From the NCBI RefSeq assembly GCF_003334335.1, contig NZ_QOWQ01000001.1: 64,000 bases of DNA, one strand, 5' to 3'. Source of the DNA: Escherichia coli. Its GTDB lineage: Bacteria > Pseudomonadota > Gammaproteobacteria > Enterobacterales > Enterobacteriaceae. Each line of letters opens with the position of its first letter. Within the stretch, counting starts at the first letter, position 1. The notes below the pieces were generated by a model. It did no database searches, was not told the DNA's origin, and saw only the letters and a list, made by a program, of their open reading frames with translations. The translations under genes and the position numbers were made by a program. Shown in pieces: positions 29,998 through 48,526 of this stretch.

Positions 29998-31446
29998 TTA
30001 TTCTCCATGCTCATTTTTCTTCAGCTTGCGCATCAGAAGCCACATACGTACTGTCCTGACTTTTAAATCTTTATCAGAGACGGATTCCTTCACCAGGTCA
30101 GCATGATGCTGATAGCCATTAAAGAAGACGTTCAGCACAACGGCGCTAAGGGTTGCGAGCATAATGCCGCTATGTAGCAGCGGTTGCAGTACGGCCGGTA
30201 ACTTAGAAAAGAAATCGTGAGAGAGCGTCGGAGTCATGCCAACGCCGAGACTGATCGCCACAATATAGAGGTTGTAACGGTTGGTGGTGTAGTTACAGCG
30301 CGACAGAATTCGAATCCCTGTCGCCAGTACCATGCCGAACATCACTAGACCAGCGCCGCCCAGCACAAATTGCGGAATGGAGGCTACCAGCACCGCCATT
30401 TTTGGCACCATGCCAAACAGGATTAATATAATTCCCGAAGAAATACACACCCAGCGGCTATGAACGCGCGTCACGCTAACCAGGCCAACGTTTTGAGAAA
30501 ATGACGTGTGGGGGAAGCTGTTAAACGTGCCGCCTATCATTGTCCCTACGCCATCGACACGCAGCCCGCGAATAATATCGTGCGAAGAGAGTTTACGACC
30601 GACTATTTCACCCAGTGCCAGGAACATCCCCATCGACTCGATAAACACGATGATTAACACGGCAGTCATGGTCAGAATGGAAACGGGATCGAAAATCGGC
30701 ATACCAAACGACATCGGCGTAACAATCGCAAACCATGAAGCATCATGTAGCCCGGATAAATTGACTTCATTCATCATCCACGAAAGTAAAAAGCCAAATA
30801 CAATCCCCAGTAATACGGCGACGTTGGACATAAATCCTTTCGCATAGCGAGTAATGAGCAAGATAAAAATTAAGACGGCAAAGGAGATACCTAAATAAAC
30901 GGGATTACCATATTGCGGATTCCCTTTACCTCCGGCGGCCCAGTCAATACCCACCTGAATGATGCTAAGCCCGATAGAAGTAATAACCACACCGGTAACC
31001 AGTGGCGGGAATAAAGGCATCAAGCGACCGATAAGTGGCGCTAATAATGTGGTGATAAAACCCGCGGCGATAGTGGCACCAAATATCCCCAGCAGGCCGA
31101 TATCCGGGTTCATCCCAATGGCTATCATTGGTGTTACAGCAGCAAAGGTCACCGACATAATCACCGGCAGGCGGATCCCCATAAAGCGGCCGATACCGAT
31201 ACATTGCAATAATGTGACGATCCCGCAGCAAAAGAGATCCGAGCTAATGAGCATCGCAATAGCTTCTTTTGAGAGGCCCAGTCGGTCACCAATCATAAGA
31301 GGAACAGCGACTGCACCTGCGTACATGACAAGGACGTGTTGCAGACCGAGTATGATCAGCTTTCCTGGTGATAATATGCGGTCAACCTCATCAGTTGGGC
31401 GGTCTTGCCCAGAAGATGAGGGAAGTTGGGAATCTATGGCGCTCAT
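29998..31446 (-). CDS. uacT: Nucleobase:cation symporter-2 family uric acid transporter
   Basis: ORF track 29998..31575 (-); start set at internal Met (MSAIDSQLPSSSGQDRPTDE..., 482 aa) preceded by AAGGAGAAACACTG; NAT/NCS2 polytopic membrane protein. Confidence 0.85.
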   Translation of the reverse strand: MSAIDSQLPSSSGQDRPTDEVDRILSPGKLIILGLQHVLVMYAGAVAVPLMIGDRLGLSKEAIAMLISSDLFCCGIVTLLQCIGIGRFMGIRLPVIMSVTFAAVTPMIAIGMNPDIGLLGIFGATIAAGFITTLLAPLIGRLMPLFPPLVTGVVITSIGLSIIQVGIDWAAGGKGNPQYGNPVYLGISFAVLIFILLITRYAKGFMSNVAVLLGIVFGFLLSWMMNEVNLSGLHDASWFAIVTPMSFGMPIFDPVSILTMTAVLIIVFIESMGMFLALGEIVGRKLSSHDIIRGLRVDGVGTMIGGTFNSFPHTSFSQNVGLVSVTRVHSRWVCISSGIILILFGMVPKMAVLVASIPQFVLGGAGLVMFGMVLATGIRILSRCNYTTNRYNLYIVAISLGVGMTPTLSHDFFSKLPAVLQPLLHSGIMLATLSAVVLNVFFNGYQHHADLVKESVSDKDLKVRTVRMWLLMRKLKKNEHGE

Positions 31447-31515
31447 CAGTGTTTCTCCTTTCGCCCGCCAGAGTAAAAAGCAACCGTTTACGTTAATGAA
31501 ACTGTCTAAACACAT

Positions 31516-31530
31516 GCTCGTGGAGTGCCA
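31516..31530 (-). promoter_or_regulatory. Candidate sigma54 (-24/-12) promoter upstream of uacT
   Basis: Reverse strand reads TGGCAC-TCCAC-GAGC: GG and GC at canonical 10-nt spacing, about 70 nt upstream of the uacT start codon. Confidence 0.3.
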
Positions 31531-31881
31531 GTTTTTGCGAGGAAGGGGAGTTAGAGACAGGAATTGCGGAGGCAATCACATAATCGTGGTTAAACCACGA
31601 AAATGAGAAGAGAACCTGACAATGGAATTATCTGTAATTTTCTCATATTGATATTTCATTAATCATTCTGGCATGTCGCACTCTCGCATTTAATCGTTTT
31701 TATCTGGATAGCGCTCTTTTGATCGGCAATGTTGAAATAATGAAAGCGGCATAGATTGAGGGGCAATAATTTGAACTCAGTCGCAAAATTATAATTAAAA
31801 CGGTCATGCTACCTAATATATGCCCGTTTATTGCATCGCGAAATTTGAGAAGACATAACTCATTAAATGAAAGGGATGCAA

Positions 31882-33801
31882 ATGAATAAGTTTATTGCTG
31901 CTGAAGCTGCGGAATGTATAGGCTGTCATGCTTGTGAAATTGCCTGTGCGGTGGCACACAATCAAGAAAACTGGCCGCTGAGTCACAGTGACTTTCGACC
32001 GCGTATCCACGTTGTAGGGAAAGGCCAGGCTGCGAATCCGGTGGCCTGCCATCACTGCAACAATGCCCCTTGCGTTACGGCTTGTCCGGTTAATGCTCTG
32101 ACTTTCCAGTCCGATAGCGTACAACTGGACGAGCAAAAATGTATTGGTTGTAAAAGATGCGCAATCGCTTGCCCCTTTGGCGTCGTTGAGATGGTCGATA
32201 CGATTGCGCAGAAATGCGACCTTTGTAACCAGCGCAGTTCCGGCACGCAAGCCTGTATTGAAGTTTGCCCAACACAGGCGTTACGACTGATGGACGATAA
32301 AGGGTTGCAGCAGATAAAGGTGGCCCGCCAGCGCAAAACGGCAGCAGGAAAAGCGTCATCAGACGCTCAGCCATCTCGCAGTGCAGCGTTGCTCCCCGTT
32401 AACTCGCGTAAAGGCGCAGATAAAATTTCAGCGAGTGAACGGAAAACCCACTTTGGCGAAATATATTGCGGGCTGGATCCACAACAAGCGACTTATGAGA
32501 GTGACCGCTGTGTTTATTGTGCCGAAAAAGCTAACTGCAACTGGCATTGCCCGCTGCATAACGCTATTCCGGATTACATCCGTCTGGTACAGGAAGGAAA
32601 GATTATTGAAGCGGCAGAACTTTGCCACCAGACCAGTTCCTTACCAGAAATTTGCGGCAGGGTATGTCCACAGGACCGTCTTTGTGAAGGCGCATGTACT
32701 TTGAAAGATCACTCGGGCGCAGTCTCTATCGGTAATCTGGAACGCTACATCACCGATACCGCGCTGGCGATGGGCTGGCGTCCCGATGTCAGCAAAGTTG
32801 TTCCCCGTAGCGAAAAAGTGGCGGTGATTGGCGCTGGGCCTGCAGGGTTAGGGTGTGCTGATATTCTGGCGCGCGCAGGAGTTCAGGTCGATGTCTTTGA
32901 TCGCCATCCAGAAATTGGCGGTATGCTGACTTTTGGCATTCCTCCTTTCAAACTCGATAAAACGGTATTAAGCCAGCGGCGAGAGATATTCACCGCAATG
33001 GGAATCGACTTTCATCTTAACTGTGAAATTGGCCGCGATATTACCTTTAGCGATTTAACTTCTGAATATGATGCAGTTTTCATCGGCGTGGGGACTTACG
33101 GGATGATGCGAGCAGATCTGCCGCATGAAGATGCGCCCGGTGTCATTCAGGCTCTACCGTTCCTGACTGCCCATACCCGCCAGCTCATGGGATTGCCGGA
33201 GTCTGAAGAGTATCCGCTGACGGACGTGGAAGGTAAGCGAGTCGTGGTATTGGGCGGTGGCGATACGACAATGGATTGTTTGCGGACTTCCATCCGCCTC
33301 AATGCCGCCAGCGTGACCTGCGCGTATCGTCGTGATGAAGTCAGTATGCCGGGCTCGCGCAAAGAGGTGGTTAATGCGCGCGAGGAAGGTGTCGAGTTTC
33401 AGTTCAATGTTCAACCGCAATATATCGCTTGTGACGAAGATGGGCGTTTAACTGCGGTGGGCCTGATTCGTACCGCCATGGGTGAGCCGGGGCCGGATGG
33501 TCGCCGTCGTCCTCGTCCGGTAGCGGGTTCAGAGTTTGAATTGCCCGCCGATGTTCTGATTATGGCCTTTGGTTTCCAGGCGCATGCCATGCCGTGGTTG
33601 CAGGGCAGCGGAATTAAACTCGATAAATGGGGCCTGATTCAAACCGGTGACGTCGGGTATTTACCTACCCAGACGCATCTGAAAAAAGTCTTTGCTGGTG
33701 GTGATGCAGTTCATGGCGCGGATCTGGTTGTCACTGCAATGGCCGCAGGAAGGCAGGCGGCGCGCGATATGTTAACTCTGTTTGATACGAAGGCATCGTG
33801 A
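31882..33801 (+). CDS. ygfT: Fe-S-containing NAD(P)H-dependent oxidoreductase, glutamate synthase small-subunit-like with N-terminal ferredoxin domain
   Basis: ORF track 31867..33801; start set at ATG 31882 ([15 protein letters not shown]..., 639 aa) with AAGGGA upstream; CxxCxxCxxxCP clusters and [19 protein letters not shown] dinucleotide-binding motif. Confidence 0.85.
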
Positions 33802-34289
33802 TGAAATCGTTAATTATCGTTAATCCGGCTGACTGTATTGGCTGCCGTACTTGTGAAGTAGCCTGTGTGGTCGCTCACCCTTCAGAACAGGAGTTGAATG
33901 CCGATGTCTTTTTACCCCGGCTGAAGGTACAGCGACTGGACAGCATCAGTGCGCCGGTGATGTGCCATCAGTGTGAAAACGCCCCTTGTGTTGGCGCTTG
34001 CCCCGTGGGGGCGCTGACGATGGGCGAGCAGGTGGTGCAGACCAATTCTGCCCGTTGTATTGGCTGTCAGAGTTGCGTCAGTGCGTGCCCGTTTGGAATG
34101 ATCACCATTCAGTCGTTGCCGGGGGATACCCGACAACAAATTGTGAAATGCGATCTCTGTGAACAGCGGGAAGAGGGGCCAGCCTGCGTTGAATCTTGCC
34201 CAACACAGGCGCTGCAGTTGCTTACTGAAAGAGAACTCAGGCGAGTCCGCCAGCAGCGTATTGTTGCCAGCGGTGAGAATCCTCTCTGA
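33801..34289 (+). CDS. ygfS: 4Fe-4S ferredoxin-type protein (four cysteine clusters)
   Basis: ORF track 33798..34289; ATG at 33801 overlaps ygfT TGA (TGATG); [55 protein letters not shown]. Confidence 0.85.
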
Positions 34290-47755: not shown

Positions 47756-48526
47756 GTGAAAAGTATAGTTGACCCATCGGCATTAGTCATTGATTTAGGT
47801 GCGCAGAAACGTCCCACTGTGATTTCTGTTGTTGGTGCTGGGGGGAAAACCAGCTTGCTTTTTTGGCTGGCAGAACTGCTCCAGGCTAGCGGCAGGCGTG
47901 TGTTAATCACGACGACGACACATATGTTTATGCCAACGTCTCACTGGCCCGTGGTTTTCTGTCGTGATCCCGCCATGCTTCCTCATGCGTCTCTTACATC
48001 CCCCATTTCATTTTGTTTTCACAGCTGGAAAGCGAACCAGGGAAAAGTGCAGGGATTTACGCCAGAAGCGATTGATGCACTGGTGCAACGACCAGAGTGT
48101 GACGTAATTCTCATTGAAGCAGATGGCTCGCGTGGAATGCCGTTAAAAGCGCCTGATGAGCACGAACCTTGCATACCCAAAAGCAGTTGCTGCGTGATTG
48201 CTGTGATGGGAGGACATACTTTGGGCGCGAAAGTGAGCACAGAAAATGTCCATCGCTGGTCGCAGTTTGCTGATATTACCGGGTTAACACCTGATGCAAC
48301 CTTGCAACTGAGCGATCTCGTTGCGCTGGTTCGCCACCCTCAGGGGGCGTTTAAAAACGTACCGCAAGGTTGTCGGCGAGTCTGGTTCATTAACCGTTTT
48401 TCTCAATGTGAGAATGCGATTGCACAAAGCGAGCTCCTTCAACCGCTGCAACAACACGACGTAGAGGCAATCTGGCTGGGCGATATACAAGAACATCCTG
48501 CAATCGCGCGCAGATTTGTGAATTAG
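47756..48526 (+). CDS. yqeC: Selenium-dependent molybdenum hydroxylase maturation protein YqeC (P-loop)
   Basis: ORF track 47756..48526, 256 aa, GTG start; VVGAGGKTSLL P-loop. Confidence 0.75.
   Translation: MKSIVDPSALVIDLGAQKRPTVISVVGAGGKTSLLFWLAELLQASGRRVLITTTTHMFMPTSHWPVVFCRDPAMLPHASLTSPISFCFHSWKANQGKVQGFTPEAIDALVQRPECDVILIEADGSRGMPLKAPDEHEPCIPKSSCCVIAVMGGHTLGAKVSTENVHRWSQFADITGLTPDATLQLSDLVALVRHPQGAFKNVPQGCRRVWFINRFSQCENAIAQSELLQPLQQHDVEAIWLGDIQEHPAIARRFVN

Follow-up and report, generated by a model that had tools for sequence, protein, structure and literature searches.

How is a short stretch of DNA between two back-to-back urate genes of Escherichia coli read in both directions? In the 64,000-nt piece of contig NZ_QOWQ01000001.1 analysed here (hereafter the window), the urate importer gene uacT and the pair ygfT-ygfS, encoding electron-transfer proteins, are transcribed away from each other from a 435-bp spacer (31447-31881). 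A first-pass annotation had correctly recognized this arrangement and had seen a sigma-54-like motif on the uacT side of it. Following up on that motif, we consider it reasonably likely to be a weak, non-canonical sigma-54 promoter that depends on the enhancer-binding protein YgeV and on CRP, and that is paired with the known sigma-54 promoter of ygfT. The uacT-side element is sharply conserved and bipartite, has the spacing of a sigma-54 promoter and is accompanied by a conserved upstream architecture.

Read on the uacT strand, the motif is CTGGCAC-TCCAC-GAGCA (31531 to 31515), with GG at 31529-31528 and GC at 31517-31516. The GG-N10-GC spacing is exact, bearing out the -24/-12 geometry that had been read from TGGCAC-TCCAC-GAGC at 31516-31530. 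The -24 half agrees with CTGGCAC at 7/7 positions; the -12 half, GAGCA, is poor and carries A in place of T at -14. Taking the C of GC as position -12, the predicted uacT start falls at ~31504, giving a 5′ untranslated region (UTR) of ~58 nt.

The evidence that carries our reading comes from other species. Each species was represented by one genome from which uacT loci were taken, and the pattern search covered 84 loci (~1 Mb). uacT and ygfT are also divergent in Citrobacter sp. R56, Trabulsiella, Serratia oryzae and Kluyvera; the E. albertii locus is cut by a contig end, and in Pluralibacter uacT has an upstream neighbour other than ygfT. On alignment, the spacer proved mostly unalignable beyond Citrobacter, with a few sharp blocks surviving. 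The conserved block at uacT reads AAAACTGGCAY-N5-RAGCATG, in which the N5 differs (TCCAC, CCCAC, TCCCT, CACCT or CGGAT). Its 18-nt core CTGGCAY-N5-RAGCAT (CTGGCAYNNNNNRAGCAT) occurs once each in E. coli (four strains), E. albertii, Citrobacter, Serratia oryzae, Kluyvera and Pluralibacter, in every case on the uacT strand and 75-102 nt 5′ of the uacT ATG, and nowhere else in the 84 loci; the expectation from shuffles of the window is 0.00. What has been kept, then, is a pair of half-elements over a variable spacer. Pluralibacter retains the motif together with the CRP-like site described below, and since the motif persists there without an adjoining ygfT, the element belongs to uacT.

An alignment-free footprint based on 10-mers strongly picked out the central repeat (see below) and the -12 element of ygfT; of the uacT motif, it caught only the -24 half, because the N5 spacer varies. 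At ygfT, TTATTGCAT, the -12 half, shows no change across five species, in contrast to a degenerate -24 half (YGYCY). In three divergent E. coli strains, the uacT motif, CRP-like site A and the repeat are all unchanged, the changes clustering at 31687-31723 and in a palindrome at 31585-99. This perfect palindrome, CGTGGTTaAACCACG (CGTGGTT-a-AACCACG, 31585-31599), had been considered as an operator; it is probably not functional, because E. coli strains differ in it and E. albertii lacks it. Note that the missing uacT motif of Trabulsiella is uninformative, its uacT-proximal spacer being shorter and containing NN.

Between the two motifs lies an inverted repeat whose form across species is T(A/C)TCA-N3-TGAGA. 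Its distance to the TGGCA of uacT is 123 bp in four species, 120 bp in Kluyvera and 156 bp in Pluralibacter; that to the ygfT -12 element is variable (146-204 bp). The window has three exact copies of the 12-mer CTCATATTGATA, namely in the uacT/ygfT spacer, in the ygeV-ygeW spacer (56860-71, where the full repeat spans 56859-56871) and upstream of xdhA (62677-88, minus strand), and a palindromic variant, TATCATTATGATA, is found upstream of ygfK (47011-23). Allowing up to one mismatch, the 12-mer has 5 window matches versus 0.21 expected, and the pattern TMTCA-N3-TGAKA (TMTCANNNTGAKA) likewise has 5 versus 0.18 expected. The ygeW, xdhA and ygfK regions that carry the repeat are the three other sigma-54 promoter regions of the cluster confirmed by chromatin immunoprecipitation (ChIP).

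A protein that might read this repeat is encoded nearby. YgeV has the Pfam domains PAS, Sigma54_activat, AAA_lid_14 and HTH_8, and one sigma-54 activator is encoded in the cluster. Because the 12-mer core recurs upstream of ygeW and xdhA, we take the central repeat as a candidate YgeV binding site; as no published YgeV site was found in the literature searched, we infer this assignment. By sequence, the uacT motif would have an upstream activator-type site in the range of ~80-200 bp as well as a cognate enhancer-binding protein. In the literature, YgeV is connected with the expression of ygfT and with a 13-gene iModulon, and the gene table places both ygfT and uacT in the YgeV iModulon group (PMC12133099). 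Moreover, ygfT is induced by urate, and its expression is reported to be reduced in a ygeV mutant. The co-regulation of uacT and ygfT that the first-pass annotation had suggested is consistent with published data.

Two further observations concern the repeat. ybiY, a member of the YgeV iModulon outside the cluster, was tried as an independent check and is uninformative, with neither a repeat nor a sigma-54 motif upstream. A repeat-like TCTCAATGTGAGA is present inside yqeC (48401-48413), ~230 bp 3′ of IS34 (48157-48173, plus strand), a published intragenic sigma-54 site and proposed driver of yqeB; a position downstream of IS34 is unusual for an activator site.

Each of the two promoters also has a CRP-like site of its own. 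Site A (TGTGA-N6-xCxCA) is located 49-50 bp 5′ of TGGCA in 6/6 species from E. coli to Pluralibacter, and for site B (TGCGA-N6-TCAAA), four species show a distance of 50-51 bp to the -12 element of ygfT. By our own arithmetic, ~0.36 chance matches to 8/10 bases of the TGTGA-N6-TCACA core are expected per spacer; we infer CRP binding at sites A and B from their 8/10 half-site matches and their conservation.

Elsewhere in the cluster, a CRP-like site is likewise seen between repeat and promoter at every sigma-54 promoter: TGTGATCAACCCCACA at ygeW (~-77.5), TGTGAGTTCATTCACA at ygfK (~-97.5), which has a perfect TGTGA-N6-TCACA core, and a weak one at xdhA (~-67.5). Urate degradation is repressed by glucose, and a Crp site has been reported in the ygeV-ygeW spacer (PMC12507026); the CRP-like sites at the cluster's sigma-54 promoters are consistent with this repression.

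On the ygfT side, sigma-54 has been located directly. The site missed by the first-pass annotation, at 31819-31835, is the one with ChIP support: in the ChIP sequencing (ChIP-seq) data of Bonocora et al. 2015 (PMC4591121), OS32 is the only site in the spacer and points to ygfT (FAT 3; position-specific scoring matrix, 4.5), and its peak is centred 3 bp from the middle of the ygfT motif. The predicted ygfT start is at 31846, 36 nt 5′ of the ATG, and the ygfT and uacT motifs are 304 bp apart. Since the window runs opposite to K-12, a K-12 v3 coordinate equals 3062813 minus the window coordinate. In these terms, the one peak reported here by ChIP-exo (B83, v3 3030971-3030985; PMC9735260) overlaps the ygfT motif (v3 3030978-3030994) and misses the uacT motif (v3 3031282-3031298). 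Published data thus establish sigma-54 occupancy in vivo, on a centred motif, at the ygfT site.

The uacT motif has no such record. Sigma-54 normally sits on its promoters without the activator, so the missing ChIP signal at the uacT motif counts against our reading; it is the main evidence against a sigma-54 promoter there, and the further points in this paragraph and the next weigh the same way. At K-12 v2 ~3029312, the motif has no peak in the Bonocora ChIP-seq data at either high or 5-fold lower stringency, nor does it have one in the ChIP-exo data (PMC9735260). Genomic systematic evolution of ligands by exponential enrichment (SELEX) with the sigma-54 holoenzyme lists the ygeV/ygeW spacer, and the uacT/ygfT spacer is absent (PMC8743547). 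Similarly, a table of putative RpoN targets contains ygfS and ygfT, with no uacT entry found (PMC9735260), and the literature searched yielded no data on the uacT start site, on rpoN dependence or on YgeV binding.

The sequence of the motif itself is a further concern. When a position weight matrix (PWM) is made of the 135 E. coli sites that Bonocora et al. 2015 found bound in ChIP (PMC4591121), the motif scores 5.4 bits, under all 135 bound sites (minimum 6.5, median 14.5), and a 49-site matrix gave the same picture. The low score is due to the G at -15 and above all to the A at -14, where 127 of the bound sites have T and a single one has A. As many as 172 window positions score at least as high as the uacT motif (1 per 744 strand-positions, or ~1.2 expected per 435-bp spacer), and matches to the sigma-54 consensus with up to two mismatches number 47 in the window versus 44.6 expected. 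On this single sequence, the uacT motif is not above chance. The sigma-54-like motif of the first-pass annotation therefore stands as an element conserved across species at sigma-54 spacing, but not as one bound in ChIP-seq, ChIP-exo or SELEX, or scoring like bound sites.

More distant genera offer little help. In Hafnia, Edwardsiella and Aeromonas (loci L008-L014), the order of elements seen in E. coli comes back ~150-200 nt 5′ of uacT: 2-3 repeat-like copies, next a CRP-like site and finally a bipartite element, TGCGCAYGTTYTGTGCA. The latter has a good -12 half, lacks the G at -25, scores 0-6 bits on the PWM and forms a 5/6 inverted repeat, again a point against us. It may be a sigma-54 promoter of the degenerate ygfT type or else an inverted-repeat protein site, and is not strong support.

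Several circumstances bear on how the missing ChIP signal should be read. The cells used for the Bonocora ChIP-seq were grown in M9 minimal medium (PMC4591121), in which CRP may have been inactive, and we found no sigma-54 dataset under urate-inducing conditions in the published tables checked. The closed complex at uacT could be too weak to be seen without help from CRP or YgeV. Helper-assisted recruitment of sigma-54 is known from the Pseudomonas Pu promoter with IHF. In the sigma-54 ChIP-chip data of Cho 2014, the region reported here (3028352-3029976) is 1.6 kb wide, a width typical of strong or double sites although OS32 is weak, and its centre (3029164) is close to the midpoint of the two motifs (3029160); width and centre are only a weak hint of a second sigma-54 site.

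Expression of uacT is in keeping with tight control. In the table accompanying a PhoB ChIP-seq study, uacT has RNA levels of only 5 and 4 (PMC10294691) and is therefore nearly silent under those conditions; such near-silence in ordinary media is expected of an activator-dependent promoter.

Put together, these elements suggest how the spacer might work, namely as a bidirectional, activator-dependent control region for two anaerobic urate-utilisation units. The central repeat TATCAATATGAGA would be bound by YgeV, and each flank would consist of a CRP-like site at -68.5 and a weak sigma-54 promoter. These two promoters would be mirror images, that of ygfT-ygfS having a perfect -12 and a poor -24 element, that of uacT a perfect -24 and a poor -12 element. 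With urate present and oxygen low, YgeV would be active; without glucose, cAMP-CRP would be available. From its central site, YgeV could then reach sigma-54 RNA polymerase at both promoters via DNA looping, perhaps assisted by CRP-induced bending, and the urate importer would be co-induced with the electron-transfer proteins YgfT and YgfS. Such a mechanism fits the urate induction of ygfT, its reported lower expression in a ygeV mutant, the glucose repression and the near-silence of uacT.

One could go a step further and regard the two promoters as a matched "half-consensus" pair at which sigma-54 occupancy itself depends on CRP bending from -68.5 and on a strictly phased YgeV 123 bp away; we think this rather unlikely. 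If true, the closed complexes of both promoters would be too unstable to arise on their own; recruitment of sigma-54, and not only open-complex formation, would be a regulated step, and this would explain why there is scant or no ChIP signal here in ordinary media. It would also account for the missing -25 G at ygfT, at the yqeC-internal site and in the uacT elements of Aeromonas and Edwardsiella.

Other explanations of the uacT motif have to be weighed against a sigma-54 promoter. That it is a chance match without function has very little to recommend it: on the single sequence, the match counts and the ~1.2 equal-scoring sites per spacer are just what this idea predicts, but the cross-species footprint has an essentially zero chance expectation. 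The conserved element might instead work without sigma-54, either as a sigma-70 promoter that depends on CRP, its weak -35 element being CTGGCA and CRP occupying an upstream, class I-like position, or as the site of another regulator that recognises the direct repeat GCAY-N7-GCAT. We hold this to be unlikely, though several points speak for it. It would account for the want of ChIP, ChIP-exo and SELEX signals and for the low sigma-54 score; the CRP-like site stands at a fixed distance from the motif; conservation runs to AGCATG, past the usual -12 core of sigma-54 promoters; and the distant-genus counterpart TGCGCAYGTTYTGTGCA is largely an inverted repeat. Against it, a scan of 31300-32000 for sigma-70 promoters and terminators found none, and the -10 hexamers 15-18 nt past CTGGCA are, by eye, poor and not conserved. 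In addition, sigma-54 would lead one to expect just such a 7/7 CTGGCAC with exact GG-N10-GC, kept across species over a variable spacer, and the activator-type repeat ~120 bp upstream is common to ChIP-confirmed sigma-54 promoters.

Alternatively, sigma-54 might drive ygfT-ygfS only, the uacT motif being weak, non-productive or architectural and uacT being expressed from another promoter. In ChIP-seq as in ChIP-exo, the sole published sigma-54 peak of the spacer does lie on the ygfT motif, the RpoN target table (PMC9735260) names ygfS and ygfT with no uacT entry found, and some sigma-54 sites are non-functional, as Bonocora et al. argue (PMC4591121). Yet a non-functional site would not hold its sequence and its distances to the ATG, the CRP-like site and the repeat across species; the motif is still there in Pluralibacter, where ygfT is not the neighbour; and uacT is co-expressed with YgeV-linked genes. 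We consider this explanation quite improbable. A YgeV- and CRP-dependent sigma-54 promoter at uacT hence remains the reading that we favour.

The window is E. coli chromosomal DNA, with ~100% identity to E. coli chromosomes. Across the 701 bases around the spacer (31300-32000), identity to 5,185 complete E. coli genomes is 98-100%, and on identical DNA, RefSeq annotates uacT as a urate/proton symporter divergent from ygfT, a formate-dependent uric acid utilization protein. UacT matches NCS2/pbuX-type permeases in NCBIfam. YgfT matches the NCBIfam equivalog NF009451 with 1505.9 bits (cutoff 1154) and combines a HydN-like 4Fe-4S domain with a GltD-like NAD(P)H/FAD domain; NCBIfam thereby bears out the Fe-S/NAD(P)H nature that the first-pass annotation had assigned to YgfT and YgfS. 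That annotation was also right about the TGATG overlap of the two genes: the ygfT stop TGA (33799-33801) and the ygfS ATG (33801-33803) share 1 nt, in agreement with RefSeq, and this same-strand arrangement at 33799-33803 suggests a translationally coupled operon. Its functional suggestion, a coupling of urate uptake to an electron-transfer module, was not new, because the role of YgfT (UacF), already named for formate-dependent urate utilisation, and the pathway had been published. Feature coordinates are collected in the table.

Table. Features of the uacT/ygfT region and the ygeV gene, in window coordinates.
Feature	Position	Strand	Basis and remarks
Sigma-54-like -24/-12 element of uacT, CTGGCACTCCACGAGCA	31515..31531	-	Sequence, cross-species conservation
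Published sigma-54 binding site of ygfT, TATGCCCGTTTATTGCA	31819..31835	+	ChIP-seq OS32, ChIP-exo B83
Inverted repeat TCTCATATTGATA / TATCAATATGAGA, candidate YgeV activator site common to both promoters	31641..31653		Repeat search, conservation
CRP-like site A, TGTGATTGCCTCCGCA	31565..31580	-	8/10 half-site bases; centred at -68.5 of predicted uacT start
CRP-like site B, TTTGAACTCAGTCGCA	31770..31785	+	8/10 half-site bases; centred at -68.5 of predicted ygfT start
uacT coding sequence, urate:H+ symporter, 482 aa	29998..31446	-	Open reading frame, RefSeq, NCBIfam pbuX/NCS2 match; ATG at 31446
ygfT (uacF) coding sequence, 639 aa	31882..33801	+	NCBIfam equivalog NF009451, RefSeq; ATG at 31882
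ygfS coding sequence, 162 aa, 4Fe-4S dicluster protein, HydN-like	33801..34289	+	NCBIfam, RefSeq
ygeV, sigma-54 enhancer-binding protein, presumed activator	57027..58805	+	Pfam, NCBIfam, literature

Some side observations concern the spacer and its surroundings. Two E. coli strains, 200112 and 23CRST036, match 31300-32000 incompletely: in one, IS1 splits the match, and in the other, just 129 bases at the end of the query remain (window 31872-32000), covering essentially the ygfT start. An RNA element in the spacer, such as a riboswitch or a leader of the xanthine or urate type, was rejected, as an Rfam scan gave only a sub-threshold chance match. Within the predicted uacT 5′ UTR, ACGTAAACGGTTGCTT (31478-31493, minus strand) resembles a PurR operator, matching 13/16 bases of the PurR consensus; it is kept only in E. 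albertii and Citrobacter, and better PurR-like boxes precede uacT in Aeromonas and Edwardsiella (L009-L014). For PhoB, a published ChIP-seq site (K-12 v3 3031605; PMC10294691) maps to ~31208, ~240 bp inside uacT. Far from the locus, CTGTCGCGATTTTTGCA in the spacer upstream of gcvT (11946-11962, plus strand) is the third-best sigma-54 match of the window (15 bits, 49-site matrix) and is not among the published ChIP-seq sites examined.

Much of the biology around this spacer has been described. The divergent arrangement, UacT as a urate permease, the YgeV iModulon and sigma-54 binding at ygfT are all published, as are the involvement of YgfT (UacF) and of AegA, its paralogue, in the formate-dependent degradation of urate and the reductive pathway via XdhD-YgfM and YgfK. 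What appears to be new, relative to the literature searched, is the promoter candidate on the uacT side, the proposal that the shared repeat is bound by YgeV and the pair of CRP-like sites centred at -68.5; no description of a uacT promoter was found in that literature. Gut bacteria lower the uric acid of their host through the anaerobic urate pathway, and strains are being engineered for gout therapy (PMC12507026). The candidate promoter, the repeat at four promoter regions and the CRP-like sites provide concrete positions to mutate, and the candidate map offers a testable explanation of urate induction and glucose repression. For the sigma-54 field, the value is smaller: if true, uacT would be one more conserved promoter missed by matrices and by ChIP in standard media.

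How does such a control region compare with known systems? Two opposed sigma-54 sites in a single intergenic region are also found at hycA/hypA (FhlA) and zraP/zraSR (ZraR). In both of these, the activator sites lie between the two promoters, and the logic shared with uacT/ygfT would be that of one activator serving two divergent units. The sites of these pairs are 128 bp (OS27/OS28) and 154 bp (OS38/OS39) apart (Bonocora et al., Table 1, PMC4591121), compared with 304 bp for the uacT and ygfT motifs. Unlike those pairs, each of the latter is non-canonical, in a different half, and has its own CRP-like site, and only the ygfT site has been seen by ChIP.

Closest to home are xdhA (OS29), ygeW (OS30), ygfK (OS31) and ygfT (OS32), a putative YgeV regulon that belongs to the same cluster and iModulon as uacT. 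With uacT, these promoters share a TMTCA-N3-TGAKA repeat upstream and a CRP-like site between repeat and promoter. In contrast, xdhA, ygeW and ygfK are near-consensus (13-17 bits, 49-site matrix) and ChIP-positive, whereas uacT, at 5.4 bits on the 135-site PWM and with A at -14, is ChIP-negative.

A catabolic sigma-54 promoter under catabolite control, with PrpR and CRP, is that of prpBCDE. Like it, uacT/ygfT would combine sigma-54, a dedicated activator and control by cAMP-CRP; unlike at prpBCDE, CRP at uacT and ygfT is proposed from 8/10 half-sites and conservation. Finally, a counterpart to the unusual -12 half of uacT exists among bound sites. The paaY-internal site IS16, TTGGCATGGAAAAAGCA, is bound in ChIP-seq (FAT 5) and in ChIP-exo, and is the only one of the 135 that shares the A at -14. 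IS16 is intragenic and scores 11.8 bits, more than the 5.4 of the uacT motif in E. coli; its form, TGGCAT-N5-AAGCA, is that of the Serratia and Kluyvera uacT motifs, the Pluralibacter motif reading TGGCAC-N5-AAGCA.

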